Positions 14,714 through 36,000 are shown, numbered from the stretch's first letter. The stretch: DNA of 64,000 nucleotides from Parafrankia elaeagni (GCF_000374165.1 NZ_KB893672.1:115002-179001), one strand, 5' to 3'. Notes: a model not told the origin generated them from the letters alone. Made by a program: numbers and translations.

Positions 14714-15117
14714 GTAGCTCCTCGCCCCCCGATCCCCCATGCGCGAACGGCACAAGGGCGAGAAGTCACCCTATAGAGCCATCTATTTGCGCGAGTCGGG
14801 CCTGCCGATGGGGTGCGGAGAGCGACGGGGGCGGTCGGGTGAGGTCGCGGGCCGCCGGTGCATAGGCGCCGCATAGGCGCATAGCGGTCTGGGGCCCCTT
14901 CGTCGCACTCTGTGTGGGAGGTGGCATAAGGTGCCCGAAGGTGGGCGTACGCGGCAGCGCGTACGGGAGTGCCGATGGTGGGGGAGACGGTTCGGGCGGC
15001 AACGCCCTGCGCGTCGCCACGGCAGGCTGCATCCCACGACGAGGGGCACCGCGTCACCCCCGTGCCTGCCCCGAGGCCGCGGCACGCGGCGTCGGGTGGA
15101 GTGAGGGGGCGGGCGCG

Positions 15118-19341: not shown

Positions 19342-21017
19342 CACTGCGCATACCCAGGGAGCTGCGCTCCTACCAGTTCGACCGGCTGACCGGCGTCGAG
19401 CTGAACGACTTCGACGTCGACCGGTTCCTGCCCGTGCTGTTCGAGATGGTGGAGACGAAGGGCCGTCGGTTGGCCCGGTCGAACGCCGACGCGACGGATC
19501 CGGACAGGTACGTCGAGGCGCTCGCCGCGCACCCGAACCTGCACGGCTTCGACGACGAGCACGGCCGCGCGGTGCTGACACAGTGGGTCAACAGCAGCGT
19601 CGTCCGGCTCGGCCACAGCGGCCGTGGCCACCGGGACGTCCAGCTGGCCGCCGTCCAGCCGATCCACATCGGCGCCTACCGCGCCGGCCTGCCGGTCGAG
19701 GGCACCCGGCACCGCAAGGTGCACCTGGTCGTCTACCGGCTGCTGAAGGACGCGCTGCTGCGCCGCGGCGCCACCGACCCGGAGCAGACGCTGCAACGGC
19801 TGTTCCGGGAGGCGTTCGGCCGCGGTGTCACGATCGACTCGCAGTTCGTCCCCGCCTTCGACGGGAAGACCGACGACCTCGACGCGAACGTCCTGCTCAG
19901 CCTCTACTACCTGGAGGGCTTCCAGCCCGGCAAGGTGCTGACCCGCCGGACCGAGCTCGACTGGAGCCCGGTCATGCCCGGGTTGATGATCTCCCTCGGC
20001 GACCTGCTGCTCGACTTCCTCACCGTCTACCGCAACCGGCTGCCCACGACCGCGCTGGCGCGTCACCTGGCCGCGCTGCTCAACATCGGCCTGTTCACGA
20101 TGACGCTGCGGCTGTTCAGCGTGGTCGGCGAGCTGTGCCGCGGCGGGGACGGCGGGGGCGGCGGCGACGGCGAGAACCGGCCGCTGCCGGCCGACCTCAG
20201 CCGCGACCTGCATCCCGCCCGCACCGAGATCTACGTCGACTTCACCCGCCAGACCGGCGGTGACTCCGACCGGCTGGCCGGCGAGTGCGTCGCCCGCGAC
20301 CTGGAACGGCTGCCCGCCTACTTCGAGGACATGATCCTGCTCAAGACCCTCGACCGGTACGCGAGCAGCGAGCAGAAGCTCCGGCCGTACGTGGAGGGCC
20401 GGCGCGGCCCGGACTGGCTGGTCGCCCTGGTCGGGATCCGCGACCTCGAATACGTCGAGTGGCGCGCGGGCCTGGACCTCGAACGGATCGTCGACACGAC
20501 CCGGGCCGAGCTGCGGACGTCCGAGGAGGACGCCCGGGCGGAGCTGGCCGGCCTCGCGCCCGGCGGGTCGCAGCTGGACGTCCTGCTCGCGGCACTGCGC
20601 CAGTCCCAGGCGTCGAAGGCGGTGACCAGCGCCGGTAGCTGGCTGTGGAACACCGGTGGCCTGCGCAAGCAGGCAGGGCTGCTGCGCGGGAACCTGCACG
20701 GCCGGCGGGCGTGGCGGTACGCGATGACCGACGAGCTGCTCACCACCATGCTGTTGACCACCCTGATGGACCGGGCGGCCGGCGCCCCGGCGCCCCGGGT
20801 GCGACTGGCCGACCTGCTCGACACCCTGGAACACCGCTGGGGCCTGCTGATCCACCGTCCACCCGCCGCGCGCGACGACGCGTCCGCGCGTGCGGTCGCG
20901 AGCCAGAACCTGGCGGCCTTCACCGGCCGGCTGCACCAGATGGGCTTCTTCGCTGACCTCGCCGACGACTTCAACGCCCAGTATGTGATCAACCCCCTTG
21001 CCGGAGCGCGGCGATGA
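19338..21017 (+). CDS. Hypothetical 559-aa protein, middle gene of the kinase operon; no recognisable domain.
   Basis: Its start overlaps the upstream stop (ATGA) and its stop overlaps the downstream start (ATGA). GC3-rich codon usage on this strand. Confidence 0.6.
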   Translation: MTLRIPRELRSYQFDRLTGVELNDFDVDRFLPVLFEMVETKGRRLARSNADATDPDRYVEALAAHPNLHGFDDEHGRAVLTQWVNSSVVRLGHSGRGHRDVQLAAVQPIHIGAYRAGLPVEGTRHRKVHLVVYRLLKDALLRRGATDPEQTLQRLFREAFGRGVTIDSQFVPAFDGKTDDLDANVLLSLYYLEGFQPGKVLTRRTELDWSPVMPGLMISLGDLLLDFLTVYRNRLPTTALARHLAALLNIGLFTMTLRLFSVVGELCRGGDGGGGGDGENRPLPADLSRDLHPARTEIYVDFTRQTGGDSDRLAGECVARDLERLPAYFEDMILLKTLDRYASSEQKLRPYVEGRRGPDWLVALVGIRDLEYVEWRAGLDLERIVDTTRAELRTSEEDARAELAGLAPGGSQLDVLLAALRQSQASKAVTSAGSWLWNTGGLRKQAGLLRGNLHGRRAWRYAMTDELLTTMLLTTLMDRAAGAPAPRVRLADLLDTLEHRWGLLIHRPPAARDDASARAVASQNLAAFTGRLHQMGFFADLADDFNAQYVINPLAGARR

Positions 21018-24000
21018 CCGATCTCAGCCCCCTGCTGGCCACCCGGGTCGCCCACCGGCTGGTGACCGACTTCCTGCAGGCAGCACCCCCCGGCCGCTGC
21101 CTGCGGCTCGATCACCTTCGCCTCGACGACTGCCATGCGGTACGCGACGCGGCGATCGCCGCACTCGCCGAAACAGCGATGGGCGCCGGCTGCGTGGTCG
21201 CCGTCCTCGGCACCGACGTCAGCGCCAGCGACGCGATCGTCTCCCCCGAACGCGCGATCGAGCTGCGTAACCGCAAATCGACCGCGCTCCTGCTGCTCGT
21301 GCCCGCGGGCACCGACAGCCCGGCGGCCAGCAGCCTGGACAACTCGTTCGAGTCGATCGACATCGAGGACCTGTTCGGGAAGATCATTCGGGACGCGCTG
21401 CAGCCGCTTGACCGGCCCCTGCGAGAGCTGTTCGCCGAAGTCCAGGCGGCGGCGCGCGGCAACGCGTTCCCACGCTCACGCCAGGCCCGGGCCGAGTACC
21501 TGCTCGCCGTCGGTGCCACCGCCGCCGACCCGGTCGCGGGCGGCCTCGCGGCCGCGCAGCACGTCGCCGGAACGCACCTGCACCTGTTCGGCCTGATCCC
21601 GGACCAGGGCGGCGCGTCATTCGTCTCCCGGCTCGCCGCGAACGCCCAATGCGTCAAGGAACTGGTCAAACCGGCCCGCTCGCAGACGGACGCACGCACC
21701 CGGCTCGCGGAATGCCCGCTGCGCCAGGACGACGAGCGCTACCGCGAGATCGAGCGGTACCTCGTCGCACTGCCCCGCCTGTCCCAACGGGCGTGGCTGC
21801 GCGACCTGGCCTCCGACGACAACGCCGACCTGGCCTTCAACCGCTGGCCGCTGGACCTCCCCACCGACAGCGACCTGATGGCGCTGCAGGTCGAGCCGTT
21901 CGCCAACGCCGAAGGGATCATCGCGGCGAGCACCGGCCTGCGCGCCGGCGCGGACGGCGAGGCACCCACCTGCTCGGCCCGCGGCGGCTTCGTGAAGATC
22001 ACCTGGACGACGGAACCCGCCAAGCCGAAGGACGTGGCCCGCTGGCAGGTGGAGATCATCCCGTCGGAGGAGTTCTACGGCGCCGAAACCGATTTCGACG
22101 TCACCCTGCCCGCGGCGAAGGTAGCCGGCAGCAGGCACAGCCACCGGCTGACGGTGAACGTCGACACCGAAGAGGCCGAACGGGTGCCGGCGCTGGTGAC
22201 CGTCCGGGTCAGCGCCCTGGACCGCAACAACCAGGTGCTGCGGCTGCGTGACGGTGCCCCCGCCCAGGCCACCAGCAAGGAGTTCGCGCTCGACGACGCG
22301 CCGCCGCCGGAGAGCACCGCCGTCCGGCGCGACACCGCGGTCTCCCTGCCGGTGGCGCGGCTGCGCGCCGAACAGGCCGGCGCGGACACCGACATCGAGA
22401 CGCCCGAAGGCTGGCAGACCGCCGACCTGGCCTACCTGCAGCTGCGCTTCGGCCGGGGCAGCAGGACACACCTCACCCGGATCGGAGTGAGCGCACCGCT
22501 GCGCGAGCTGTCCACGCGCGTACTCGCCGAGCCGGAGACCGTCGGCAGGTACGAAGCCGAGGTGGGCGGCGGCCAGCTGCTCGCCGCGGCGACCGCCACC
22601 GCGGCCGGCCCCGACTGGCCATCGGGCGCGGGCCGGGCGTTCCTCGCCGCCCGCCGGGAGTTCTTCGAGGCGGTCCGCGCCCAGCCCGGTCGCGGCCTGC
22701 TCGAAGTCGCCGCCGTCTCCGACGAGCTGGCCGCGCTCGGGGCGAAGTACACCGCTGCCTACGGACGGATCCTGCGCCGGGACTCCAGCGCCCCCGACCC
22801 GCGGGTGCTCACCTCGATCGACACCCTTCGGCTGCGCATCCGCCTCGGCCGGCGCCACCCGGTGGACGCCCTGATCATGCTGCCCACCCATCCGCTGCGC
22901 GTTGCCTGGTACCTCGGCTACCACGCCGAGCTGGAACAGTGGCGCACGAAAATGCGGACACTGGCGGCGAAGGACCGCCGCGACGACGCCGACCTCGACC
23001 TGCTCGCCAGGCTGTCACCCGCCCGGCTGCCGTTCCTGCTCGCCGGCCCGGACGGCGCGCCCCACGTGTTCGCGCAGAACCTGCGGCTGCTCTACGGGCT
23101 GTACCTACCCGTGGACGAGGCTGACCCGGCGACGGCTGTCAGCGAGACGGTGACCGTGCTCGGCCTGCCGAGCGCCGATGCCAGCGTCGGCGAAGTGCCG
23201 CCCGCCCGGCTCGCCGACCGCATCCGGCTCTACCGGAACACTCACCGCAGCCCCGAGCGGCTGCGGATCCTGGCGACCAACCCGGGCAGCGGCGAGTTCC
23301 TCGGTGAGGCCCTGCGCGTCGTCACCGCCGACACCGGCGATCTCGCTGACACGGGCGACCCCGCCGGCACCGGCACCGGCACCGGCACCGGCACCGGACG
23401 CGAGCTCGGCGAGGACGAGGCCGTCACGGCGCCACACGTCTGGATCGAGGTGTTCGGCGAGGGCGCCTCGGAGACGAACCCGCTGCCCGGCCTGCGCCAG
23501 CTGCAGCGCGACATCGCCGACAACCGCACCCGACGGAGCAGCGACTTCCTCGACCCGGCGCTGGAGATCTCCGCCGCCCCCTTGGACGCGATCGAAGCAG
23601 CCCGGGACGCCCATCTGGCGGTGCTCGCCGACATCAGCCGCCCCCAGCTGCACATGAGCGTCGCCGAAACCAGCGGCGGCAGCGTCTCCTTCCGTGGGCT
23701 CATTACCCAGCTGGTTACCCGACGCGACCCGACCGAGCTCGCCTGGGACGTGGGGATCGAGTTCCCCACGGCGCGCGGCGCGGACTCCACACCCGTCACC
23801 GACCTGCACCGTCGCTTCGCCGAAACCGTCTCAAGCCTGTTCACCGCCGGCGGGGACGAGACGACGAGCGGAGACCGTACGGCGGCCAGCGCCGACCCGG
23901 CTGACCCGGCTGACCCGGCTGACCCGGCGAGGGACGACCGGGCCATGCGGACGGCCCGGATCCGAGTCCAGGTCGACGGCGACACCCGACGGGTGCTCGG

Positions 24001-26248
24001 CCTCGCGCATGACCGGTGCGACTGGGTCGTCGTCCTGGACCGTTTCCTCGGCCTGGACCTGTTCGACGACCCGTCGCGGCGATCCTTCGACGGGCGGCGC
24101 TACATCCTCGACTACGCGCCCGAGTTCCTCGACGGCCTCGGCCACCAGATGGCCATCACGACGGCGCACCGGGCCGACGTCGAGAAGATGTTCCTGCGGG
24201 CGATGACCGAGCTCGGTTTCGAACAGCCCGGTGAGTCGGTGTCCTCGGTGGTCGACGAGCTGCTCCTCGTCTCCGGCCGGCTGATCCTCGCCGCGACCGG
24301 CAACGACAAACGCGCCAAGGAGGCAGTCGCGCTCGCCGCCGTCGTCTCCCATCTGCGCCGGCGCGGCGAACTCGCCGACACGATCATCATCCCGGTTGAC
24401 GCGCACCTCGACCTGTTCGGGCCGCGCGCCCACCGCGGCGGCGCCCACGGCGAGAAAGCGCGACGCTGTGACCTGCTGCTGGTGCGCTTCCCGGGACGCC
24501 GGCTGCACATCGAGGCCGTCGAGGTGAAATCACGCGGGATGCTCGACAGCGAAGACCTCGCCCGCGGCATCGACGCTCAGGCCCGGGCGACCATCGACGT
24601 CGTCCAGCGGCTGTTCTTCGCCGAGCCGGCGCGCATCGACCAGCCGCTGCAACGGACCCGGCTCGCCACCCTGCTCCGGTACTACCTGCGGCGCGCGGCG
24701 CGACGCGGGCTGATCACCGACGCGGCGACGTTCGGCCGGATGCAGGAAGGCATCGACCGGCTCGACACCGCCGACCCCTCGGTCTCCTACCAGCAGAGCG
24801 GCTACATCCTCGTCCAACGAGGCGACGGCGTGGACGAGTTCACCATGGGCGAGACGCGCATCCACCCACTGACAGCCGCGGACCTCGGGGTCGAGACTCC
24901 CGCTGCGGACACCCCCGCGGACACCCCTGCCCTGGACGTGGACGGAACGCCTGAGTCGCCTGAGCGGCCGGAACTGCCTGAGCGGCCGGAACTGCCGGAG
25001 TCGTCGGGATCATCGGAACCGTCGGAACCGTCGGAACCGTCGGGATCGTCGGGATCGTCGGGATCGTCTGAGGGTGAGCGGTCCGGGCAGTCCGACGCCT
25101 CCGACGCCTCCGACGTGGCACCGGCCGGTGGCGAGACGTCCAGCCCGACATCCGTCCCGGAGACCGGCGGAGCCTCCGTGCGTCGTGCTTCTTCTGGCGC
25201 GCTGGAAGTCGTCCGGGTGCCGGTCGGACGAACACTGCCCCCGGAGGAGGACGTCGTCTGGGAAGTTGCCACGATCGGCAGCCCCCACCTGTTCATCCTC
25301 GGAATTCCCGGGCAGGGGAAGTCGGAGACGACGATCCGGCTGCTGCAGGGCGCCGCCGGGAGTGGCCTGCCCGCGCTGGTCATCGACTTCCACGGCCAGT
25401 TCAGCTCCGACCCACGCCGTCCTCGGTCACTGCGGGTGCAGGACGCGGCGGCCGGGCTGCCGTTCTCACCGTTCGAGCTGACCGAAGCCGGCGGACGGCA
25501 CGCGTACAAGATGAACGCGCTGTCCATCTCGGAGATCTTCGCCTACGTCTGCGGACTGGGCGACATCCAGCGCGACGTGGTCTACCAGGCTCTGATCAGC
25601 CGCTATGAGGCGCACGGCCACGGTCAGCTCGCGCCGCCGCAGGGCATCCCCACACTGGACGAGGTACGCGACGCCATCGCGGCCCTGGAGAAGGAACGCG
25701 GGGTGGCGAACGTCCTCGCCCGCTGCCGCCCATTGCTCGAATACGGCCTGTTCACCGACAACACCGGTGTGAAGGTGCAGGACCTGATCCGCGACGGCCT
25801 GGTGGTCGACCTGCACGGCTTCGCCGAAGTGGAACAGGCGCAGGTCGCCGCCGGTGCGTTCCTGCTCCGCAAGATCTACAAGGACATGTTCACCTGGGGC
25901 CAGAGCGGGGAGCTACGGCTCGCCATCGTCCTCGACGAAGCACACCGCCTCGCCAAGGACGCGACCCTGCCCCGGCTGATGAAGGAAGGCCGCAAGTTCG
26001 GCGTCGCCGTCGTCGTTGCCAGCCAGGGCATAGACGACTTCCACCCCGACGTCCTCGCCAACGCCGGCACCAAAATCATCTACCGGGTCAACTACCCGCA
26101 GTCCCGCAAGGCAGCCGGATTCCTGCGCACCCGCACCAGCAAGGACCTCTCCGAGGAACTCGAGCAGCTCCCGGTCGGCAACGCCTACGTCCAGACCCCG
26201 AACATGGCTGTCGCCCGCCGCACCCGCATGCTCCGCCCCGAGACGTGA
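21014..26248 (+). CDS. 1744-aa protein with a C-terminal HerA/FtsK(DUF87)-like P-loop ATPase domain; the N-terminal 1300 aa are uncharacterised.
   Basis: Walker A 'ILGIPGQGKSETT'; Walker B 'LAIVLDEAHRLA'; 'VVVASQGIDDFHPDVLANAGTKIIYRVN' is typical of HerA/DUF87 ATPases. An acidic/Pro/Ser linker 'ESPERPELPERPELPESSGSSEPSEP...' and a (GT)5 repeat are present. Confidence 0.7.
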   Translation: MTDLSPLLATRVAHRLVTDFLQAAPPGRCLRLDHLRLDDCHAVRDAAIAALAETAMGAGCVVAVLGTDVSASDAIVSPERAIELRNRKSTALLLLVPAGTDSPAASSLDNSFESIDIEDLFGKIIRDALQPLDRPLRELFAEVQAAARGNAFPRSRQARAEYLLAVGATAADPVAGGLAAAQHVAGTHLHLFGLIPDQGGASFVSRLAANAQCVKELVKPARSQTDARTRLAECPLRQDDERYREIERYLVALPRLSQRAWLRDLASDDNADLAFNRWPLDLPTDSDLMALQVEPFANAEGIIAASTGLRAGADGEAPTCSARGGFVKITWTTEPAKPKDVARWQVEIIPSEEFYGAETDFDVTLPAAKVAGSRHSHRLTVNVDTEEAERVPALVTVRVSALDRNNQVLRLRDGAPAQATSKEFALDDAPPPESTAVRRDTAVSLPVARLRAEQAGADTDIETPEGWQTADLAYLQLRFGRGSRTHLTRIGVSAPLRELSTRVLAEPETVGRYEAEVGGGQLLAAATATAAGPDWPSGAGRAFLAARREFFEAVRAQPGRGLLEVAAVSDELAALGAKYTAAYGRILRRDSSAPDPRVLTSIDTLRLRIRLGRRHPVDALIMLPTHPLRVAWYLGYHAELEQWRTKMRTLAAKDRRDDADLDLLARLSPARLPFLLAGPDGAPHVFAQNLRLLYGLYLPVDEADPATAVSETVTVLGLPSADASVGEVPPARLADRIRLYRNTHRSPERLRILATNPGSGEFLGEALRVVTADTGDLADTGDPAGTGTGTGTGTGRELGEDEAVTAPHVWIEVFGEGASETNPLPGLRQLQRDIADNRTRRSSDFLDPALEISAAPLDAIEAARDAHLAVLADISRPQLHMSVAETSGGSVSFRGLITQLVTRRDPTELAWDVGIEFPTARGADSTPVTDLHRRFAETVSSLFTAGGDETTSGDRTAASADPADPADPADPARDDRAMRTARIRVQVDGDTRRVLGLAHDRCDWVVVLDRFLGLDLFDDPSRRSFDGRRYILDYAPEFLDGLGHQMAITTAHRADVEKMFLRAMTELGFEQPGESVSSVVDELLLVSGRLILAATGNDKRAKEAVALAAVVSHLRRRGELADTIIIPVDAHLDLFGPRAHRGGAHGEKARRCDLLLVRFPGRRLHIEAVEVKSRGMLDSEDLARGIDAQARATIDVVQRLFFAEPARIDQPLQRTRLATLLRYYLRRAARRGLITDAATFGRMQEGIDRLDTADPSVSYQQSGYILVQRGDGVDEFTMGETRIHPLTAADLGVETPAADTPADTPALDVDGTPESPERPELPERPELPESSGSSEPSEPSEPSGSSGSSGSSEGERSGQSDASDASDVAPAGGETSSPTSVPETGGASVRRASSGALEVVRVPVGRTLPPEEDVVWEVATIGSPHLFILGIPGQGKSETTIRLLQGAAGSGLPALVIDFHGQFSSDPRRPRSLRVQDAAAGLPFSPFELTEAGGRHAYKMNALSISEIFAYVCGLGDIQRDVVYQALISRYEAHGHGQLAPPQGIPTLDEVRDAIAALEKERGVANVLARCRPLLEYGLFTDNTGVKVQDLIRDGLVVDLHGFAEVEQAQVAAGAFLLRKIYKDMFTWGQSGELRLAIVLDEAHRLAKDATLPRLMKEGRKFGVAVVVASQGIDDFHPDVLANAGTKIIYRVNYPQSRKAAGFLRTRTSKDLSEELEQLPVGNAYVQTPNMAVARRTRMLRPET
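23366..23397 (+). repeat. (GGCACC)5 hexanucleotide repeat encoding a (GT)5 linker in the 1744-aa ATPase protein.
   Basis: ggcaccggcaccggcaccggcaccggcaccgga. Confidence 0.85.
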
Positions 26249-26250
26249 CC

Positions 26251-26289
26251 CCGGTGCGGGCCGCTTTCGGCAGCAGCGGCCGGCACCGG
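26251..26289. terminator. GC-rich inverted repeat between the convergent genes; candidate bidirectional terminator.
   Basis: ccggtgcgggccgc-tttcggcagca-gcggccggcaccgg, directly after the TGA at 26246–26248. Confidence 0.4.
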
Positions 26290-26327
26290 GATGGCCGGTG
26301 GTCGCCGACGGCTTGTGGACGGACGCG

Positions 26328-27137
26328 TCAGGTGTGTTTCCCGTCGACATAGACGTCGACCTTCTCGTCGTAGAAGCAGACCAGGCCGGCGATGCGGATG
26401 CTCTCGGGCAGTGGGGTGCGGTAGAGCCAGACGACGTCCTCGTGGATCTTGTCGTTGACCTGGACGGAGAAGTAGCCGGCGGTGCCCTTGTAGGGGCAGT
26501 GGGTCGCGGAGTCGGAAGGCACCAGCAGTTCTGTCCGCACGTCGGTCAGCGGCAGGTAGTAGCGCGGGCGGATGCCGGACTCGAACAGCGCGACCGGGCG
26601 GACGGAGTCGGCGACTGTCACGCCGTCGATCTCCACGCGGACGTGTCGGGAGCTGGAGAGGGCATCGATGCGGTGGTAGGGGTTGCGCGCGTGCCCGTAG
26701 ACGATCTCGTCCTCCTCCAGCCATACGTCCATCGCGTCCCAGTCGAGCCGGACGAGGCCGCGCAGCTGCGGGATGGGGGAGTCGGGGTAGGTGCCTGCGG
26801 CGTCCGGCGCTGTCCGGTCGGCGATGACCACGTCGTGGCGGACGGCGTCGCCCCGGCTCGGCGAGCGCGTGGTCTTCCCGTTCGGTTCGAGGGTCGCGCG
26901 GACGTCCTCGGCGGGCAGATAGTAGACGGGGTAGTGCGGGCCTTCCCAGACCAGTACGGGGCGGATCGTGTCCACGACGACATGGCCGCCGAGCAGTGCT
27001 CTGACCCGCTTGTTCGCCTGCTCGGCGTGGACCCGCCCCCGGCCGGTGGTGGCTGCCGGCTTCACCGACCCGGCCGCCGGAAGGGCGGCCGCACCCGCGG
27101 GTGCGGGTGTGGTGCTGGTGGGAGGAGGTGTTGTCAT
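26328..27137 (-). CDS. DUF427 domain-containing protein (tandem DUF427 repeats).
   Basis: Two copies of 'YYLP..DV' and the 'CPYKGTAGYFSV' signature; Pro/Thr/Ala-rich N-terminus. Confidence 0.7.
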   Translation of the reverse strand: MTTPPPTSTTPAPAGAAALPAAGSVKPAATTGRGRVHAEQANKRVRALLGGHVVVDTIRPVLVWEGPHYPVYYLPAEDVRATLEPNGKTTRSPSRGDAVRHDVVIADRTAPDAAGTYPDSPIPQLRGLVRLDWDAMDVWLEEDEIVYGHARNPYHRIDALSSSRHVRVEIDGVTVADSVRPVALFESGIRPRYYLPLTDVRTELLVPSDSATHCPYKGTAGYFSVQVNDKIHEDVVWLYRTPLPESIRIAGLVCFYDEKVDVYVDGKHT

Positions 27138-27285
27138 GGCGTCTTGTTCCTTCCGCCGCGTCCGCCCACGTCTGCCCGCGTGTGCGGTTTTCCGTCAGGC
27201 CATTCGATCGCGTGCCAGGCGCCAGGTCCAGCGGAACGTCGCGCCGAGGGCGCGGGTGGCGGGAGGCTCGCCGTGCCGGCCGGGT

Positions 27286-29667
27286 TCACCGAGTCGGGTC
27301 AGAGTGGCCGGGGCCGGGGCCGGGGCCGGGGTTGGGTTCGGGGAGCTGGCGAATCCCTGCCCACACGGTGTCACGAGCCCGCGTGATCGCCACGTACAGC
27401 TGTCGGCGTTCCAACCGGGTGCGTTCATGGAACGCGTCGGCAGCCTCGGAAGGGCGCCGGGGGCCGGGGAAGAGATTACGGTCGGGTAGGCAGACATGGG
27501 CGAAGTCGAGGGCCTTGGCGCGGTGGTACGTTCCGACCTTGACGCCTTCACCGTTGGTTCCGTCGTAGTCCATCAGCGATATTGCCGGAATTCCGTGCCC
27601 AGCGAGCACCCGCAGCCAGTGGAACTCTGCCTCGTTCGTCGACACGAGCACGGCCATGTCGCCATACCGGATATCTCTGTCGGCATGCAGCTCCGTGAGA
27701 TGCTTGCACAGTGCCGTGTCCTGCGCGGCGGTGTCTGGCACGGTGACTTCCGTTATCTCACCTCCGGGGCGCTCGATGTCGACGTCGCGCTGTCCGCGTT
27801 CCGGGGTGCCGTCGAGATCGTCGAAGCTGTCGTCGGCGATCACTGTCTGGGCGTGGTGCAGGATCTCCGCCCGGTTACGGTAGTTTCGCGTCAACACCGT
27901 GGAACGTCCCACGACGGGGACACCTGCCTCGGCGAGGGTGAATCCGCCCGGGTAGATGGACTGCTGACCGTCGCCGACGACAAGCAGGCCGTCGGGCTTG
28001 TCTCCGACGAAGGCGTGCAGCAGTTGGAGGCCGACACACGTCAGGTCCTGCACCTCGTCGACGATCACCGCGTCGTAGCGGGTCTCGGAACTTTCGCGAA
28101 CCAGGTCACGAGCCAGGAGCAGCACATCGTCGCGGTCGAGGACACCGCGTTCCGTTCGGAGCTGCTCGTACCGTTCGTAGAGATCCCAGACCGCGCGTCG
28201 GTGGGCCGGTTGCAGCGGCGTACTGCGTCCTACTCGCGCCAGTCCGGCGTACTGCGAGTAGGAGGTGAGGCCCCGGCCCTTGATGACGATCGCGATCTCG
28301 TCCTGCCAGTACTGGGGGCCGAGACCGAGTCCGAGGCCGGGCAGGACCGAGTGCTGTCCAACCTGCGCCCAGGCCCGTGAGAAGCAGGTGTCGGCGATGT
28401 CCTGCAGGTGCCGGCCCGCCAGGTCGTGATCGCGAAGACAGCGGGCGGCGACGGCGTGGACGTTGATGAACTCGATGCGCTCGACATGATCGGGCGCCAT
28501 CCGGGTCAGCAGAGCGCGGTAGACCGGACCAAGCGTGCGCACCTTCGACGTGAACAGCACCCGGTCTCCGCGGGTGGCCAGGAACTTGGCGCGATGTAGC
28601 GCGACGACCGTCTTGCCGGTGCCCGCCGCGCCCCGGACACGTGCCGGACCAGACCACTTCCGGCCGGCAAAGCGCGCCTGCGCCGGGTGCAGCCAGGTCA
28701 TCCATGTCTCGATCGGTTCACGGGCGGCGGCGTTGAGCAGCTCCTGCCACAGTTCGTCGCGACTCAGCAACGAGCCCTGACCGGTCAACGGACCTTCACC
28801 CGGTTCACCGGCCTCCGAGAGGTCGGGCCGGGCCGACGGCCCTGGGGCGGACGTCCGCCTGCCGGCGGGGGGCGGATCTTCCCGGCGTGCCAGCGGGTGT
28901 CCCGCCGGCCGGGAGGTCAGCACTACCTGGTGCGCGGCGCGGGGCATCGGAGGACATCCACGCTCCAGTTCGTCCAGTAGCCGTTCGACGAGGTCAGGGG
29001 TCAGGCGAGCGCCCCGACGCGCCAGCTCCCTGGCGAGGTCGTGCTCCCCGAGCACGGTCACCGCGTCGATCGGTTCCCGGATGTTCCTGCGCCCGGCCAG
29101 GGCGAGCAGCGCCACCACCTCGGTCGGTGGCAGGCCCGCATCTGCCAGCACCTCCGCCACCGCGGCGGCCTGATCCACAAGCTTGCGAATGTCGTCATCC
29201 GCATCGGCGTCGCCGCGCCACAAACGGCCGCGCTCGACGGAGGCCTCCCGCCAGTTCTTCACGTCCACGACGAAGACCCCGCCGGGCCCCACCAGGATCA
29301 CGTCGATGTTGGCCCTGCGGGTGCCCGGCCACTGCCTGTCCGGCAGCACATGCCACCCGGCATTCTCCATAGCTATCAGCGCCCGGGTCACGTTCTGCTC
29401 GGCCCGGCCACCGGCTTCCCACCGCTGGCGATGGCGGTTCAGCTGGTGCTGGGTGTCGTTCAGATGCTGGATCTGCCGCTCGACTCCGGCGATCTCCATG
29501 CCGAGCAGCACGGCCTGACCGAGGGCGGACGGCTCCGGCAGCGAGCGGATGCCCCTCGCTGCTCTGGCGCCCGGGAGCGCCGCGGTGGTGCGGGGCCGCG
29601 GCCTCTCTGCATCGACGGTCGGAACAGCAGTGTCGGGGAGCATCGACGGTGATTCGTGGGCACGCAC
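27286..29667 (-). CDS. NERD-domain protein fused to a UvrD/REP-like superfamily-1 DNA helicase.
   Basis: NERD 'NIDVILVGPGGVFVVDVKNWRE'; Walker A 'GAAGTGKTVVALHRA'; Walker B 'DAVIVDEVQDL'; C-terminal helicase motifs 'DFAHVCLPD...YVAITRARD'. Confidence 0.8.
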   Translation of the reverse strand: MRAHESPSMLPDTAVPTVDAERPRPRTTAALPGARAARGIRSLPEPSALGQAVLLGMEIAGVERQIQHLNDTQHQLNRHRQRWEAGGRAEQNVTRALIAMENAGWHVLPDRQWPGTRRANIDVILVGPGGVFVVDVKNWREASVERGRLWRGDADADDDIRKLVDQAAAVAEVLADAGLPPTEVVALLALAGRRNIREPIDAVTVLGEHDLARELARRGARLTPDLVERLLDELERGCPPMPRAAHQVVLTSRPAGHPLARREDPPPAGRRTSAPGPSARPDLSEAGEPGEGPLTGQGSLLSRDELWQELLNAAAREPIETWMTWLHPAQARFAGRKWSGPARVRGAAGTGKTVVALHRAKFLATRGDRVLFTSKVRTLGPVYRALLTRMAPDHVERIEFINVHAVAARCLRDHDLAGRHLQDIADTCFSRAWAQVGQHSVLPGLGLGLGPQYWQDEIAIVIKGRGLTSYSQYAGLARVGRSTPLQPAHRRAVWDLYERYEQLRTERGVLDRDDVLLLARDLVRESSETRYDAVIVDEVQDLTCVGLQLLHAFVGDKPDGLLVVGDGQQSIYPGGFTLAEAGVPVVGRSTVLTRNYRNRAEILHHAQTVIADDSFDDLDGTPERGQRDVDIERPGGEITEVTVPDTAAQDTALCKHLTELHADRDIRYGDMAVLVSTNEAEFHWLRVLAGHGIPAISLMDYDGTNGEGVKVGTYHRAKALDFAHVCLPDRNLFPGPRRPSEAADAFHERTRLERRQLYVAITRARDTVWAGIRQLPEPNPGPGPGPGHSDPTR

Positions 29668-30504
29668 GTAGCGATCTCCTCACCTGGTGTCACAGATGAG
29701 GATAAGTCGGTAGGCTGATGTTTGCCTCTGTTTAGGGCGAATGAGGTCGCTCGAAGCTCGGCGAGAGACTTTTAGCGTCGAAAGCGCCGATTCGCATCAA
29801 ACAAATGTTCGAGCATGCCGCTGCGATGCGCGCCTCGCGCCGGATGGGGCTGGCGCAGCTGCCTGGGGCAGGCGGGACCACGGCGTGATCACAATCTTGC
29901 CGTGGACGTGGCGTCCGGGCTCGCGTCGGCGCCGCCGGTCGCGCGCACGCCATCGGAGGCATTGGGCCCGGCTGCGCTTGCCCCGGCGATCGCCTGTGAG
30001 TGCTGGGGCGACACGGCTGACGGCGACGACTTCAGTGAGGTCGCTCGGCGGGCACTCGGCGGACTCTCGGCGAAGTGCGGGCGCCAGGGCCTTCTGTCGA
30101 TGGCCGCCGGCTGGGGCGGACGGAGGCCTTCCGAAGTCTTCAGGGCGTGCGGGAAACCGGTCCTGCAGTTCACGGACTTCACGTCATGCCGGGTTCCCGG
30201 TGGGAATCCGAATCGGCGATCTCGTCGGACCTGCCGCGGCGGTTGGCCGGATCCGGAACAACCCCGTCAGGAAGGCGATAGCGGGGAGGGGCCCCGGGTC
30301 CGGCGTGTTCCAATGCGTGGGAAGTCGGGGCGGCGGTCACCACCGCCGGTGTTTCTGATCGGAGCTCTGTGCCATGGCATCCTCGGTCACGTCGGAATCT
30401 GATTTTCGCCAGATGGCGGGGTTTTCCTGGTCCGTGACGCCTGGCCTCGTCCGGAACCGTGAGGTGGTCGGCGTGAATGCGGATCGACGTCACTGCTGAT
30501 CGCT

Positions 30505-30945
30505 GTGCATTCCTCCGCCGATCCGCCCGGTGCGGCACTGTTCGATCGCGTCGAGCTGGGCGCGTCCTTCCGCGTGGCGCTGGCCGTTGTGGCGGTCGCG
30601 CTGGCGCTGGTGGGCGTCTGGCTCCTGGTCCGTCTGCTGCTCTTCCCGCTGCGCAGGCTGCGTGGGCTGCGGGGGCGCGGGGTGGCCTCCTCCCGCACCG
30701 AGCTGACGGGTCGGGTGTGCGTCATCCGCACCGGCCGGGTGGGCCCTGAGTTCGGCCAGGCGGAGGTCAGGGCGGCCGACGGGTCGTCCGCGCTGGTCCA
30801 GGTGCGACATCCGAACCTCAACCCGTTGCTGCAGGCGGGCAGTTCCGCCGTGATCTACAGCTATGACCCTGCCGGCGAGTTCTTCTGGGTGAGCCCGCTG
30901 GACTTCACCCGTGAGCTGGACCGCGACCTCCCCGCGGCCGACTGA
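30505..30945 (+). CDS. NfeD-family membrane protein (OB-fold partner of SPFH/flotillin).
   Basis: N-terminal transmembrane segment 'VALAVVAVALALVGVWLLVRLLL' followed by a β-rich OB-like region 'GRVCVIRTGRVGPEFGQAEVRAADGSSALVQVRH'. Lies immediately upstream of the flotillin gene. GTG start. Confidence 0.6.
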   Translation: MHSSADPPGAALFDRVELGASFRVALAVVAVALALVGVWLLVRLLLFPLRRLRGLRGRGVASSRTELTGRVCVIRTGRVGPEFGQAEVRAADGSSALVQVRHPNLNPLLQAGSSAVIYSYDPAGEFFWVSPLDFTRELDRDLPAAD

Positions 30946-30961
30946 GAGCGTAGGAAAGCAG

Positions 30962-33040
30962 ATGAGCCTCGTTGCGATAGTCCTGGGCGTGTTGTTCGGT
31001 GTCGTCATTCTCGTCGCGCTGGGCGCAGTCGTCGCGGTCAGCCGGCTGTCCCGCCGGGTGGAACAGGGAAAAGCTCTTATCATCTCGCGGTCCAAGAAGG
31101 TCGACGTCACCTTCACCGGTGGGATCGTGTTGCCGATCCTGAACCGCGCGGAGGTGATGGACATCTCCGTCAAGACGATCGAGATCCGGCGGACCGGCCG
31201 GGAGGGGCTGATCTGTCGGGACAACATGCGGGCGGACATCCGCATCACGTTCTTCGTCCGGGTCAACAAGACAGTCGAGGACGTCATCAAGGTGGCGCAG
31301 GCGATCGGCACCGCGCGGGCCAGTGACCAGACGACACTGCAGGAGCTCTTCAACGCCAAGTTCTCGGAAGCGCTGAAGACCGTCGGCAAGCAGTTCGACT
31401 TCGTCGACCTCTACACGAAGCGCGAGGACTTCCGAGACCAGATCATCCAGGCCATCGGCCGCGATCTGAACGGCTACAGCCTGGAGGACGCCGCCATCGA
31501 CTTCCTCGAGCAGACCCCGATGAGCCAACTCGACCCGGCCAACATCCTCGACGCCCAGGGCATCCGGAAGATCACCGAACTGACCGCGATCGAGCATGTC
31601 CGTACCAACGAGTTCCAGCGCCAGGAGGAGAAGGAGGTCACCCGCCAGGACGTCGAGGCGCGGGAGACGATTCTCGAGCTCGAGCGGCGGCAGGCCGACG
31701 CCGAGACCAGGCAGGAGCAGGAGATCGCGACGTTGCGGGCCCGGGAGGAGGCGGAGACCGCCCGGGTGCAGGCCGAGGAACGGCTGAAGGCGACCTCCGC
31801 GGCGCTGCGCGCCGACGAGCAGCTCGGCATCCAGCGGGAGAACCAGGCCCGGGAGATCGCCGTCGCGGAGAAGAACCGGGAGCGGGTCATCGCCATCGAG
31901 ACCGAGCGGATCGAGAAGGACCGCCAGCTCGAGGTCGTCGCCCGTGAGCGGGAGACCGAGCTGTCCCGGGCCGCCAAGGACAGGGAACTGGAAGTGCAGA
32001 AGCAGGCGGTCGCCGAGGTGCTCCGTGACCGGATCGCCGTGGAGCTGACGGTCGCCGAGCAGGAGGAGGGCATCAAGCGACTGCGGGCCGTCGAGGATGC
32101 GGAGCGGCTGCGGCAGGCTCTGGTGATCGAGGCGGAGGCCGAGGCCCAGCAGGCTCTCGTCAAGGACATCAAGGCGGCCGAGGCCGCCGAGGAGGCCGCC
32201 GGCCACCGGGCGCGGGAGACGGTGGTCCTCGCCGAGGCCCGGCAGCGGGCCGCCGATCTGGACACCCGCGCCAAGATCCAGCTGGCCCAGGGCCTGCAGG
32301 CCGAGGCCGCCGCCCAGGGACTGGCCGCGGCCACGGTGCGGGAGCGGGAGGCGGAGGCGATCGAGAAGGTCGGTCGGGCCGAGGCCGTGGTCGACCGGGA
32401 GAAGGCACTGGTCGCCGCGGCGGCGATCCGGGAGCGGCTGCGGGGCGAGGCCGACGGCCTCACCGAGAAGGCGGCGGCGATGGCGGCGTTGGACGAGGCG
32501 AGCCGGGGCCACGAGGAGTACCGGCTGCGGCTGGAAGCCGAGAAGGAGATCCGGCTCGCCGGCCTCGACATCCAGCGTCGGATCGCCGAGTCCCAGGCCG
32601 TGGTGCTGGCGGCCGGACTGGAGAACGCCGACATCGACATCGTCGGCGGCGAGAGCATGTTCTTCGACCGGCTGCTGAGCTCGGTCACCATGGGCCGGGC
32701 GGTGGACGGCTTCGTCGACCACTCCACCGTCGTCGGGGGCCTGGCGGGCAACTGGCTGGACGGCTCGGCGGACTTCACCGCGGATCTGACCCGGATGCTC
32801 GGTTCGCTGGGCTCCGGTGACGTCCAGAACCTCACGGTGTCGGCGCTGCTCCTGCAGATCCTCAAGGGGGGCGGGCTGGACGCCGCCAGGCTGCGGGAAC
32901 TGGCGGACGTGGTGGCCGGCACGGCGCAGCCGGAGACCACGCCCGCCGCGGCGACGAGGTCCGCCGCCACCGCGAAGCCCACGGCCACCGCGAAGCCCAC
33001 GGCCACCGGTGGTGCCACCGGCCGTGGCACCACCCGCTGA
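30962..33040 (+). CDS. Flotillin / SPFH (band-7) family protein with a long coiled-coil.
   Basis: N-terminal transmembrane 'MSLVAIVLGVLFGVVILVALGAVVAV'; SPFH core 'VDVTFTGGIVLPILNRAEVMDISVKTIEIRRTGREGLICRDNMRADIRITFFVRVN'; extended E/R/A-rich heptad region; AGGAAAG Shine-Dalgarno before the ATG at 30962. Confidence 0.85.
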   Translation: MSLVAIVLGVLFGVVILVALGAVVAVSRLSRRVEQGKALIISRSKKVDVTFTGGIVLPILNRAEVMDISVKTIEIRRTGREGLICRDNMRADIRITFFVRVNKTVEDVIKVAQAIGTARASDQTTLQELFNAKFSEALKTVGKQFDFVDLYTKREDFRDQIIQAIGRDLNGYSLEDAAIDFLEQTPMSQLDPANILDAQGIRKITELTAIEHVRTNEFQRQEEKEVTRQDVEARETILELERRQADAETRQEQEIATLRAREEAETARVQAEERLKATSAALRADEQLGIQRENQAREIAVAEKNRERVIAIETERIEKDRQLEVVARERETELSRAAKDRELEVQKQAVAEVLRDRIAVELTVAEQEEGIKRLRAVEDAERLRQALVIEAEAEAQQALVKDIKAAEAAEEAAGHRARETVVLAEARQRAADLDTRAKIQLAQGLQAEAAAQGLAAATVREREAEAIEKVGRAEAVVDREKALVAAAAIRERLRGEADGLTEKAAAMAALDEASRGHEEYRLRLEAEKEIRLAGLDIQRRIAESQAVVLAAGLENADIDIVGGESMFFDRLLSSVTMGRAVDGFVDHSTVVGGLAGNWLDGSADFTADLTRMLGSLGSGDVQNLTVSALLLQILKGGGLDAARLRELADVVAGTAQPETTPAAATRSAATAKPTATAKPTATGGATGRGTTR

Positions 33041-33050
33041 GGCCGGCAGC

Positions 33051-36000
33051 GTGGCCCCGACCCCGACCCCGACTTCGACCCGGCCGGCCGTGACCGAGCG
33101 GCGGGCCGTGACCGAGCAGCAGGCTGCGACCGAGCAGCAGGCCGTGACCGAGCAGGGTGTGACCGAGCAACAGGGCGCGACTGACGGGGACAGCTACGAG
33201 GTGCTGCGGGCCCGGTTGGCCGAGCAGGCAGCGGAGCTGACCCGCCGGGCCGACATTCTCAACGCCCGCCGGCTGGCGGTGTTCGGCGGCAGTGGGCTCC
33301 GCCTGCTCGGCGCCGAGCAGGTCAGCACCCGGCGTCCCTGCGTGCCGCAGGACATCGTGGCACTCGGTGAGTACCTGCTGCTCGGCAGCAACCTGCCCAC
33401 CGGCCTGCCTGCCGCCCTCCCCACCGCGCTCCCCGTCGGTTCGATGCCCGGCGGGGAGGAACCTGCGGAGGTCACCGACGCCCTGTCACTGCACCGCCTG
33501 GTCCGAGCCGTCGGCGGCGGCGGGGACACGGAGGCCGGCGGCTCCCGCTTCCGGTTCGACGACGCGGGCCCGGACGGGGACGTCCTGCCCGGCGTCCTGC
33601 CCGGCGTCCTGCATGACCCGACGCTGCACCGTGACTTCCGCGAGCTCTACCGGTACTACCGTGACACCCGGCTGCTCCGGCTTCGGCGCCTCGACGACAG
33701 AGTGCTCGCCGTCTTCCAGACCGGCCGCCGGCCGGAGGACATCCGGGTGCTGCGGTGGTGGACCGGCACCCGCGGCACCGTCGACTACCTGGACAATCTT
33801 GGCGAGCGGGACCATGTCCTCCCGCCGGCGCACGACCTCGACTGGATCGCCGCCAGCCGCGACGATCACGTGCTGGGACGACACCCGCACGTCTCGGTGC
33901 AGGGGGCCGTGTTCGTCTCCACCGTCGGCGGGGCCCTCACCGTCAAGACCGAGAACGACACCGAAAGCGCCGACGGGATCTACCGCGAGCCCGTCGACGA
34001 GCCGCTGCAGAGCCTGGCCGACGCCGACATCCAGCATGCCCGGGTCGGGCCGCTGGTCCTGCTGCGGATCCGGCCGTACAAGGAGACCGGGTGGCGGCAC
34101 CTGGTGTTCAACACCCGCAACGCCCGGATCGTGCGCCTCGACGGGATCGGGCAGGGATGCCGACGGCTGCCCGCGGAGCAGGGGATCATCTTCGCCGACG
34201 GCTACCACCTGGCCACCGGCACCGTCCGCACCTTCGGCACCCTCGGTACCGACTCGTCCGACCTGGAGTTCGACCTGGAGTTCGACCGGGTCGTCCACGC
34301 GCCCGGCGGGGAGGACGTGCTCTACGTCTTCCACGCCCGGAACACGGGCCGGTTCCTCCTGCTGCCGTACAACGTGATCCGCCAGGATGTCGCCACGCCG
34401 CTCGCCTGCCATGGCTACGCCCTGTTCGGCGACGGCACCCTGGTCCTGCTGCGAACCCCGCCTGCCGCGCCCGCTCGCACCCACGCCGTGCAGATCTGGC
34501 AGACGCCGTACGGACACACAGCCGAATCCACGACCGCGACCGTGACCGTGACCGGGCCGCTGGAGCGGATCGGCAACGCGGACCTGGTGCAGGGGATCTC
34601 GGACTGCATCTCGGTGGCACGCCTGGTGGCGGAGATGACGCCGTCCCGCGCCGTGCTCGAGGCGCTGATCGGGGCCTGCGGCCGGGCGTTCGACCGGTAC
34701 CACTGGCTGGGCGACCCGGCCCTCGGTGACCCCGGTGACCCCGGCGCCCCCGGTGACCCCGGCGCCCTCGGCGATCTCGCTGACCTCGGCGCGCCGCTCG
34801 CCGAGGTCCGGGCCACCGCCGAGCGGATGCTCGCGGAGTTCGAGACGGTCCAGGTACTCGCCGAGGCAGCCCGGGCCACGCTCGCCACCGCCGCCGCCGA
34901 GGTCGACACCCTGCTCCGGCGCGTCCGCGACGAGACACCGCGGACCGCCGGCGCGGCCGTGACGGCGCTCGCCGACCTGCGCCGGGCCCAGGGCCGCCTG
35001 GTCGCGCTGCGCGACGTCCGCCACATCGACCTGGCGCGGATCGACGCACACGCGGCCGAGCTGGACGCCGGGATCACGGCCGCCGGCCGGCGCGCGGTGG
35101 AGTTCCTGCAGGGCGACGGTGCCTTCGCCGACTACCACGCGGAAACCGAGCAGCTGGCCGCGCAGGCGGCAGCCATCGCCAGCGCCGCGGCCGCGGCACC
35201 GATCGCCGAGCGGCTCGCCGCACAGACCGCCGGCCTGGAAACCGTCGTCGAGATCGTCACCGGCCTCGACATCGTCGACACCGCCGTGCGCACCCACCTC
35301 CTGGACCGGATCGGCGAGGTCTTCGCCGACGCCAACAGGGTGCGGGCCATCCTGGACGCCCGCCGCGGGCAGCTGTTCGACACCGAGAGCCGGGCCGTGT
35401 TCGCGGCCGAGTCCGCGCTGCTCGGCCAGGCCGTCACTGCCGCGCTGACGATCGCCGACACCCCTGAGCGCTGCGACGAGCAGCTGGGACGACTGCTCGT
35501 CTCGCTGGAACGCCTGGAAGCGCGCTTCGGCGACTCCGACGACGCCGGCGCCGAGCTCGCGGCCCGGCGGGCCGACCTCTACGACACGTTCTCCGCCCGC
35601 CGCCAGGAGCTGGTGCAGGCGCGGACGCGGCGGTCCGGCCGGCGAGCCGACTCCGCCGGACGGATCCTGACCGGCATCCGCCGCCGCTGCGTCGGCCTGC
35701 GCTCCCTCGACGAGATCAACACCTACTTCGCGACCGACCCGATGGTGACCACGCTGCACGGCATCGTCACCGAGCTGCGTTCCCTCGGCGAGCAGATCCG
35801 CGCGGACGAGATCGCCGGCCGGGTCGAGGCGGCGCGCCTGGACGCCCGCCGGGCCCTGCGCGACCGGGCCGACCTCCACGAGGGCGACGCGGTCCTCCGC
35901 CTCGGGCGTCACCTGTTCACGGTCAACACCCAGCCGGTCGACCTCGCTCTCGTCCCCGACGGGGACGACCTGGCGTTGGTGGTCACCGGGACGGACTACC

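Follow-up and report, generated by a model that had tools for sequence, protein, structure and literature searches.

A Predicted NERD-UvrD Nuclease-Helicase Flanking a Parafrankia Defense Hotspot: A Candidate Stand-Alone Immunity Protein With Apparent Kinship to ArmD

Introduction

ArmD, described as a RelE-like RNase joined to a GajB-like UvrD helicase, is needed for anti-phage defense by the ARMADA II system (PMC12458937), and Nhi-like proteins have been listed in a review as bearing the Pfam domain NERD (PMC10952713). A further defense system, MADS, has MAD6-8 as its defining core; MAD1-5 are accessory, and a UvrD helicase is not among its components. Here we compare with these systems a gene of Parafrankia elaeagni, NERD-UvrD, which joins a predicted NERD nuclease to a UvrD-type helicase of superfamily 1A (SF1A). 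The gene lies in a stretch of 64,000 nucleotides (GCF_000374165.1, NZ_KB893672.1:115002-179001), which was analyzed whole and is called the window below. A preliminary description of the window had proposed this fusion at 27286-29667 and a tandem DUF427 protein at 26328-27137, and both are borne out by Pfam matches above the gathering scores. That annotation was correct but fairly routine, and part of what had been concluded from it was mistaken; the main value of the locus lies in the link between NERD-UvrD and ArmD and in the boundary of the neighboring defense island. We regard NERD-UvrD as a candidate stand-alone, single-gene nuclease-helicase surveillance or immunity protein, a reading whose chances we consider evenly balanced.

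Results

The gene and the parts of its 793-amino acid (aa) product are as follows; pLDDT is the predicted local distance difference test score of the structural model, and conservation was read from an alignment of 60 homologues.

27286-29667, minus strand: NERD-UvrD nuclease-helicase gene, open reading frame (ORF) of 793 aa with a GTG start; alternative ATG at 29643
Residues 1-43, minus strand: disordered N-terminal tail (AlphaFold model)
28933-29538, minus strand: N-terminal module, residues 44-245 (secondary structure, pLDDT 73-96)
29113-29412, minus strand: NERD core, residues 86-185 (Pfam)
29302-29304, minus strand: D122, putative catalytic residue (alignment)
29257-29265, minus strand: putative catalytic D135-x-K137 (alignment)
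28777-28935, minus strand: Pro/Ala/Arg-rich linker, residues 245-297 (pLDDT <50; gappy, poorly conserved alignment block)
27310-28776, minus strand: compact SF1A UvrD-type helicase core, residues 298-786 (conserved motifs, Foldseek)
28609-28632, minus strand: Walker A motif GAAGTGKT
28045-28059, minus strand: DEVQD motif

Support for NERD from hidden Markov models had been proposed as a check on the fusion. Pfam NERD (PF08378) was recovered at residues 86-185 with E=1.6e-13 and 51.6 bits against a gathering cutoff of 22.1, and the helicase half matched UvrD-helicase (9.7e-13), UvrD_C (2.6e-13) and AAA_19 (3.5e-10), all above their gathering scores. The same Pfam search found no AAA_11/AAA_12 match and no RNA-binding domain in the protein. 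NERD is a PD-(D/E)xK domain, and members of this superfamily are mostly DNases. The AlphaFold model (mean pLDDT 83) leads from a long helix (residues 48-103) through the NERD PD-(D/E)xK core to a helical tail that ends in an invariant CPP. Within the N-terminal module, D110, N120, D122, D135, K137, W139 and C238-P239 are invariant (60/60 sequences), and E90 is kept in at least 90%. The NERD active-site pattern E...D...(D/E)xK is present, and we take E90, D122 and D135-x-K137 as a putative PD-(D/E)xK site.

The helicase motifs GTGKT, DEVQD, GDGQQ, NYRN, VKVGTYHRAK and TRARD show little or no variation, and Foldseek ranked UvrD/PcrA/Rep highest for the core (E ~1e-19), followed by AdnB, AddA and RecB. 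Membership in the SF1A UvrD/REP helicases is thus borne out by motifs I-VI together with a UvrD-like fold. The translation start is uncertain: the closest homologue (P0001) begins nine codons farther on, at an ATG, and disorder is predicted for residues 1-43. GC content at third codon positions (GC3) is 0.81, against 0.88-0.95 for most window genes, in a window with a GC content of 66-77%. NERD-UvrD is predicted to be an intact, stand-alone protein, composed of a NERD nuclease, a disordered linker of ~50 residues and a UvrD-type SF1A motor, and the gene looks functional.

By its profile scores, the protein stands far from the housekeeping UvrD, PcrA and Rep helicases. Against the NCBIfam equivalogs it reached 64.4 bits for pcrA (cutoff 911), 49.4 for uvrD (1144), 44 for rep (951) and 24.8 for HelD (419), so that the pcrA, uvrD and rep scores amount to ~5% of their cutoffs. 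A single-sequence phmmer search of the PDB gave 34.5 bits for PcrA and 27.8 bits for UvrD. GajB-like helicases were considered as the closest relatives of the core and rejected, the phmmer search having returned only PcrA, UvrD and Rep at E<=0.01.

Resemblance to ArmD was found along the motor. BLASTP aligned NERD-UvrD with an E. coli plasmid ArmD, whose gene stands fourth in an ArmA-ArmB-ArmC-ArmD operon, at 186 bits (E=7e-53; 8e-53 in a rerun), and the helicase core is 31-33% identical to plasmid ArmD proteins over ~485 aa. A protein of RelE-like-UvrD architecture, P0329, gave 305 bits and 43% identity over 494 aa of the core. Plasmid relatives found by tblastn match in the helicase core only (residues ~308-771, ~30% identity). 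The two that were inspected each lie directly downstream of a giant DEAD/DEAH helicase of ~2100 aa, and the wider region around the E. coli plasmid relative holds the entire ArmA-B-C-D operon.

An exhaustive search returned 959 clusters (50% identity) at E<=1e-30. We typed the N-termini of the best 150 cluster representatives by BLAST with NERD and RelE queries (five RelE-type N-termini): 78 were NERD-type, 21 were RelE-type, resembling ArmD, and 51 were other or fragmentary, while none of the 150 matched both. The N-terminus of NERD-UvrD itself gave no BLAST match to the five RelE-type N-termini. A neighbor-joining tree of 122 helicase cores, rooted at the midpoint, resolved two main groups, one RelE-type, with the plasmid and P. 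colletiae ArmD proteins, and one NERD-type, with the window protein; N-termini of unassigned type occur in both. NERD-UvrD is best described, on this comparison, as a sister family of ArmD with its N-terminal effector exchanged (NERD for RelE). Such a swap on a conserved motor would be typical of conflict systems. Nested in the NERD-type clade are ten proteins of ~650-680 aa (P0330, P0361, P0347, P0364, P0369, P0366, P0336, P0341, P0305 and P0324); BLAST with the NERD and RelE queries gave no match to their N-termini, which may hold a third type of effector or else a NERD that has diverged.

A protein search found 1587 homologues of NERD-UvrD, and nearly all of the 120 listed share its architecture. 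Genomic contexts were compared in the best 80 of 201 loci from a pattern-based scan with one genome per species, drawn from Frankiaceae, Streptosporangiaceae, Kineosporiaceae, Nanopelagicales, Catenulispora, Nocardioides and ~40 Streptomyces species. The largest cluster of neighboring genes recurs in 9 of these 80 loci; by tblastx of the flanks, no locus shares sequence with more than eight others and 18 share with none. NERD-UvrD therefore lacks conserved core-genome synteny across the 80 species. The preliminary description had asked whether the gene would fall among housekeeping UvrD/PcrA genes with conserved core synteny, and neither was seen (44-64 bits against cutoffs of 911-1144, and no conserved synteny). 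In P. soli, the orthologue (L033 8958-11099) has two frameshifts, runs through three reading frames and lacks residues ~354-417; this copy is probably a pseudogene, unless the assembly is in error.

Co-occurrence with known defense genes, another check proposed earlier, proved recurrent but far from universal. Seven loci were annotated gene by gene with Pfam, and defense genes were sought within a radius of 10 kb. Across the whole set, defense genes lie nearby in at least 16 of the 80 loci, a lower bound and a raw count, and they are rare in Streptomyces. We also scanned genes no more than two positions from the helicase. In the half of the loci from Frankiales and metagenome-assembled genomes (MAGs), the 116 neighboring proteins include seven AAA_11/AAA_12 helicases, three strong PDC-S37 matches, three Hhe and one DarG, along with three Vsr-like (MTES_1575) endonucleases. 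Individual neighborhoods contain AIPR, Mrr, TIR, DUF559 and PemK (Parafrankia, L083), TIR-NB-ARC and PIN (Frankia QA3), or a NERD-AAA_19 protein, a SNF2 helicase and an HNH protein (L088). Recurrent large neighbors are Upf1-like SF1B helicases (two families in five loci each, ~7 loci overall). Homologues of PDB 7CLG, whose record is named 'putative helicase' and which we take to be the type IV restriction enzyme SauUSI, lie near the helicase in four loci. At L083, in a 9.4-Mb genome with an 80%-identical orthologue, a DUF559/MTES_1575 Vsr-like endonuclease (12367-13449) stands directly downstream, its start abutting the helicase end; this pair is reminiscent of the Hhe architecture of helicase plus Vsr.

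Two defense operons lie to the left of NERD-UvrD, an ARMADA II-like operon (85-14755, minus strand) back-to-back with a MADS core (14914-26248, plus strand).

14914-19341, plus strand: MAD6 (NCBIfam 502 bits, cutoff 460)
21014-26248, plus strand: MAD8-like protein (or DndH/HerA-type ATPase), 1744 aa (partial model matches)
11654-14755, minus strand: ArmA-like SNF2 helicase (full-length homology to E. coli plasmid ArmA)
6945-11654, minus strand: ArmB-like methyltransferase (homology to plasmid ArmB; PADLOC 'REase_MTase_IIG' E=0)
85-6948, minus strand: ArmC-like YprA-like helicase (homology to plasmid ArmC; PADLOC DruE-like)
From ~88 off the left window edge, minus strand: fourth ARMADA-operon ORF (ATGA overlap with the ArmC stop)

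The plus-strand kinase operon is the MAD6-MAD7-MAD8 core of MADS, MAD7 scoring 443 bits against a cutoff of 410. Known models match the MAD8-like protein only at its two ends, the N-terminal ~200 residues resembling NCBIfam MAD8 at a score under its cutoff and the last ~350 being of HerA/DndH ATPase type; the long middle contains low-complexity repeats (PADPADPADP, PERPELPERPELPES, GSSGSSGSS, TGTGTGTG). MAD6 carries its own NERD domain (residues 83-203, 1.5e-13), ~14 kb from that of NERD-UvrD. The earlier observation of two independent NERD proteins within 15 kb thus stands: because the two domains share only 31% identity over 72 aa, they are independent, and a recent duplication as their origin was rejected. 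The MAD6 model matches NERD-UvrD along the NERD stretch only (23.9 bits, cutoff 460), and NERD-UvrD is not a MAD protein.

In full-length comparison, the window's Arm proteins show 29-35% identity to ArmA-B-C of an E. coli IncY plasmid. The gene order of the minus-strand operon is that of ARMADA type II (PMC12458937). By its position, the fourth ORF should be ArmD. It has a ribosome-binding site, GGGAGGAA, and its sequence begins MSNITMSRQFRRRLDIDGSLKQRAWDFLT; the 29-residue fragment is too short for confirmation by BLAST. The composite of MADS and ARMADA II may be an undescribed arrangement, since the ARMADA preprint makes no mention of MADS or kinases (PMC12458937).

Comparison among close relatives places NERD-UvrD outside this island.

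26249-26327, no strand: boundary of the variable defense segment (blastn breakpoints)
29668-30504, no strand: non-coding region upstream of the helicase gene, with strain-specific insertions (GC3, Rfam, blastn)

The NERD-UvrD protein is 98% identical in Parafrankia sp. FMc2 and 95% identical in P. colletiae Cc1.17 and Frankia sp. Cpl3. By blastn, the homology of P. colletiae to the window is continuous from 38353 to 26327, ending one base after the DUF427 stop. Past this breakpoint, P. colletiae carries (L003 13336-22379) a DrmA-like helicase (PADLOC 1e-210), a 760-aa UvrD-type protein and small membrane proteins; the 760-aa protein is a full-length match to the E. coli plasmid ArmD (35% identity, 7e-117), and the set as a whole is ARMADA/DISARM-like. 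P. colletiae retains NERD-UvrD, DUF427, SPFH and DUF3686 at 94-95% identity, without the MADS/ARMADA cargo of the window. This pattern indicates that the segment left of 26327 is a defense hotspot, bounded by the DUF427 gene, with cargo swapped between sister strains. Because homology to P. colletiae stops at 26327, with other cargo beyond, NERD-UvrD and DUF427 belong to a conserved flank; the island should be taken to end at 26327 and neither gene counted as its cargo. This flank consists of NERD-UvrD, DUF427, a small ORF and the genes for SPFH and DUF3686, and PADLOC found no match among them besides the helicase itself.

The view of the region as a defense island was therefore right in one respect, a genuine defense locus (MAD6/7/8 and ARMADA II-like genes) lying to the left, and wrong in another: NERD-UvrD and DUF427 are flank, and the second NERD protein does not reinforce it. 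The proximity of the two NERD proteins, ~14 kb apart, is mostly a by-product of MADS inserting beside an older gene. NERD-UvrD is chromosomal in the window genome and directly flanks the MADS and ARMADA II hotspot; its link to the MADS kinase operon is positional, not operonic. In FMc2, an endonuclease V (nfi) gene, which the window lacks, sits between DUF427 and MAD8 (L002 6137-6928; Pfam Endonuclease_5, 7.7e-67).

On the other side of the helicase gene, the 838-bp upstream spacer holds no ORF with coding-like GC3 and no Rfam match. Insertions into it are strain-specific: an IS110 transposase in FMc2 at ~30198-30204 (L002 739-2206), and TetR plus a zinc-dependent alcohol dehydrogenase (Zn-ADH) in P. 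colletiae at ~29837-29970 (L003 8235-9831). An Rfam scan of 25500-31500 gave nothing beyond one chance microRNA match (E=0.81). Between 26000 and 30600, a scan for promoters and terminators returned three weak terminator-like sites, all on the plus strand and none between NERD-UvrD and DUF427, and no promoter.

Farther upstream, 30505-38351 holds a conserved trio without PADLOC match, made up of a 146-aa ORF, a 709-aa protein of SPFH/flotillin-like type and a giant ATPase of 1844 aa (DUF3686/DUF7902/AAA); the 146-aa ORF, beside the helicase, has no Pfam match either. In Streptomyces sp. NPDC046939 (L047), an SPFH and DUF3686 pair lies ~6 kb from the helicase homologue. An IS607/IS605-like element follows at 39716-41613, with a 190-aa ORF bearing a weak helix-turn-helix (PADLOC mad1 1.6e-4) and then a TnpB/Cas12f-like protein of 468 aa (Cas12f 1.9e-125).

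The DUF427 gene lies directly downstream of NERD-UvrD.

26328-27137, minus strand: tandem DUF427 (PF04248) gene, 269 aa, ATG start (two Pfam stretches, 5.6e-51)
26364-26642, minus strand: DUF427 domain 2, residues 166-258 (Pfam)
Roughly residues 44-143, minus strand: DUF427 domain 1 (estimate)
27033-27137, minus strand: Pro/Thr-rich leader, ~residues 1-35 (not conserved)
27138-27285, minus strand: 148-bp helicase-DUF427 spacer, with no terminator-like or promoter-like site

Its two Pfam stretches score 170.8 bits against a gathering cutoff of 22.1. A ribosome-binding site, GGAAGGAA, precedes its ATG, and co-transcription with the helicase is possible. The gene converges on the last gene of the kinase operon, the two stops (26328 and 26248) being 80 bp apart. 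The search for tandem DUF427 proteins gave 4701 homologues; among the 120 matches listed, identities are 62-88% across Actinobacteria, lengths ~250 aa and query coverage 87-89%. Within the DUF427/PF04248 family the window protein is typical of this ~250-aa actinobacterial tandem form and differs only by its low-complexity N-terminal leader. The Pro/Thr-rich extension noted earlier is indeed present, but it is not conserved: its ~30 residues fall outside the conserved region and vary even among Frankia homologues (263-286 aa).

The fold had been called uncharacterized, which we correct here: the protein matches PDB 3DJM (6.8e-8), a solved structure, and the DUF427 fold is classed as a beta-tent (PMC4287342). 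PADLOC and NCBIfam gave no match for the DUF427 protein. DUF427 lies beside the helicase in only 3 of the 80 loci, all near-identical Parafrankia. Close homologues sit in catabolic clusters (lipid or aromatic) in Frankia sp. CcI49 (88% identity), P. inefficax (82%) and Nocardia (66%), with acyl-CoA dehydrogenases, thiolases, ligases, MarR regulators and Rieske oxygenases as neighbors and the helicase not near. We rejected DUF427 as a defense partner or a novel fold, given its broad conservation, the catabolic contexts and the solved 3DJM fold. The gene is an unrelated, conserved actinobacterial bystander.

Discussion

The kinship with ArmD suggests how NERD-UvrD might act. We infer a defense role, together with substrate and polarity, as follows. 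Like other motors of the UvrD family, the ATP-driven helicase would be expected to load on DNA structures of invading or replicating foreign DNA (3' tails, forks, nicks) and to move 3'->5', after which cutting would fall to the tethered NERD nuclease, following the logic of Nhi and RecB/AddA. An ArmD-type SF1A motor would in this way deliver a NERD nuclease to foreign or aberrant nucleic acid. In favor of a defense role, the motor is homologous to that of ArmD, which is essential in ARMADA II, and is not housekeeping. The variable neighborhoods, the lowered GC3 and the frameshifted P. soli copy, which are marks of an accessory gene, point the same way, as do the defense genes near the helicase in other genomes. 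More specifically, the actinobacterial NERD-UvrD proteins could be a stand-alone, domain-swapped sister lineage of ArmD that acts as a single-gene anti-phage or anti-plasmid nuclease-helicase, with ArmD-type proteins forming modular pairs of effector and motor that work solo or within multi-gene systems; this fuller proposal we advance tentatively, as possible rather than probable.

Several observations weigh against a role in defense. The association with defense genes, seen as raw counts, is real but partial; where Streptomyces dominates, in one half of the loci, the 124 neighboring proteins are mostly terpene synthases, transporters and regulators, with only a handful of strong PADLOC matches, and two of the seven annotated loci (L087 and L089) have no defense genes within 10 kb. 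P0329, the closest RelE-type relative examined, is a solo gene in an ordinary neighborhood. Identity falls roughly with taxonomy, from 80-98% in Parafrankia through 62-75% in other Frankiaceae and ~55% in Streptosporangiaceae to ~42% in Streptomyces, as expected from vertical descent with loss. Full-length homologues are essentially absent from the plasmids and phages searched, the one plasmid match being a 3.1-Mb Embleya replicon; we dropped the notion of a family borne chiefly by mobile elements, as those searches otherwise gave core relatives. The best PADLOC match, PDLC01087 'C3a187 NERD+UvrD' (1.6e-23), has the same nominal architecture, but of the 559 positions in the profile only 316-539 align, which correspond to the helicase C-terminus, and the NERD-less ArmD orthologue of P. 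colletiae matches equally well (1.3e-25). Because of these two facts the match is no sign of membership, and we rejected it as such. The preliminary description had called such fusions functionally untested; this appears to be so, no experiments on the family having been found in the literature searched.

A different account would make NERD-UvrD a lineage-specific enzyme of repair, recombination or fork processing, a single-polypeptide analogue of RecB, AddA or AdnB that is dispensable, is inherited mostly vertically, is often lost and has no role in immunity. The identity gradient along taxonomy fits this account, as do the single chromosomal copy at each recovered locus, with full-length forms absent from phages and present in one plasmid record only, the ordinary neighbors in Streptomyces, L087 and L089, the rank of AdnB, AddA and RecB just after UvrD/PcrA/Rep in the structure search, and the local synteny kept within Frankia cluster-1 species. 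Synteny is nevertheless absent at the level of the genus and above, even among the ~40 Streptomyces species; the P. soli copy is frameshifted; and several Frankiaceae lineages are missing from the best 80 loci, a weak point given the pattern-based scan. Moreover, the nearest relatives are ArmD-type helicases of a validated defense system rather than repair helicases, and the N-terminal effector is swapped between sister clades. We consider the repair account rather unlikely. Less probable again is an abortive-infection effector whose helicase senses foreign DNA while NERD cleaves RNA, in the manner of the RelE-like RNase of ArmD. Most members of the PD-(D/E)xK superfamily are DNases, as is generally known, and the lack of an RNA-binding domain by Pfam also speaks against RNA cutting, while the sister clade, where a predicted RNase of RelE-like type occupies the corresponding N-terminal place, speaks for it. 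A 2026 preprint identifies the NERD domain of ZwsA as an RNA endonuclease with essential residues E535/D567/E580/K582, and this pattern of E, D and E-x-K fits E90, D122 and D135-x-K137 of NERD-UvrD; the ZwsA evidence is, however, a single preprint on a protein of very different architecture. On balance we find RNA cutting improbable.

Two further explanations would tie NERD-UvrD to its neighbors in the window. It could be a functional part of the MADS/ARMADA island next to it, such as a second effector helicase of ArmD-like type: it lies no more than 1.1 kb from the end of the MAD8 gene and has a domain type in common with MAD6, its ArmD-like core shares the window with an ARMADA II-like operon, and Parafrankia sp. 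FMc2 has the same arrangement. Yet P. colletiae has the helicase without this cargo, its breakpoint falling exactly after DUF427, and among the other 77 loci tblastn (E<=1e-8) found no homologue of ArmA/B/C, MAD7 or MAD8, the only matches being three generic kinases to MAD6 at 27-28% identity. The gene is also on the opposite strand, with DUF427 in between; the ARMADA operon appears to own a fourth gene, from ~88; and the definition of MADS includes no UvrD helicase. We hold a role within the island to be very unlikely. The pairing of NERD-UvrD with tandem DUF427 as a two-gene module deserves almost no credence. The two genes share a strand and a 148-bp gap with no predicted terminator, and the pair is kept in three Parafrankia genomes, but the adjacency is absent from the 77 other loci, the DUF427 orthologues (82-88%) and the Nocardia homologue (66%) stand in catabolic clusters without the helicase, DUF427 has no PADLOC match, and it is far more conserved (~66% between Frankia and Nocardia) than the helicase (~42% between Frankia and Streptomyces).

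Should NERD-UvrD act in defense, it would be a compact single-gene immunity candidate, widespread in Actinobacteria (Frankia, Streptomyces and many soil MAGs). The part played by ArmD in ARMADA would then also be easier to understand, as that of a motor delivering an exchangeable nuclease or toxin.

Set beside the known systems, NERD-UvrD resembles several in part. With UvrD/PcrA/Rep and RecB/AddA/AdnB it has the SF1A fold and motifs in common, and RecB and AddA are likewise coupled to a PD-(D/E)xK nuclease; it differs in that its predicted nuclease is N-terminal and of NERD type and its core compact, at ~490 aa. GajB of Gabija is also a UvrD-family helicase, and several PADLOC GajB models match NERD-UvrD partially (best 1.2e-20), but NERD-UvrD carries a fused nuclease domain, as predicted, and by Pfam and PADLOC no GajA/OLD-family partner stands beside it, the neighbors being DUF427 and the 146-aa ORF. 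Nhi and Nhi-like proteins unite a nuclease and an SF1 helicase in one polypeptide, encoded by stand-alone genes, as NERD-UvrD does. Nhi-like helicases belong to SF1B (AAA_11/AAA_12, Upf1/DNA2-like), whereas NERD-UvrD is an SF1A UvrD-type protein without AAA_11/12, and the likeness, taken from descriptions, is one of architecture. From ArmD it is set apart by a NERD PD-(D/E)xK domain in place of the RelE-like one, and by its setting: ArmD is the fourth gene after ArmA-B-C, whereas NERD-UvrD is solo, without a methyltransferase partner, ~20 kb from the window's ArmC, beyond the MADS genes and between DUF427 and the small ORF. The two have in common a layout in which ~200-240 N-terminal residues, bearing a nuclease or toxin domain, precede the core, and that core is homologous, down to the unusual shared motifs PIExWMxxLHPxQ, VIKGRGL and GDGxQxIYPGGF.

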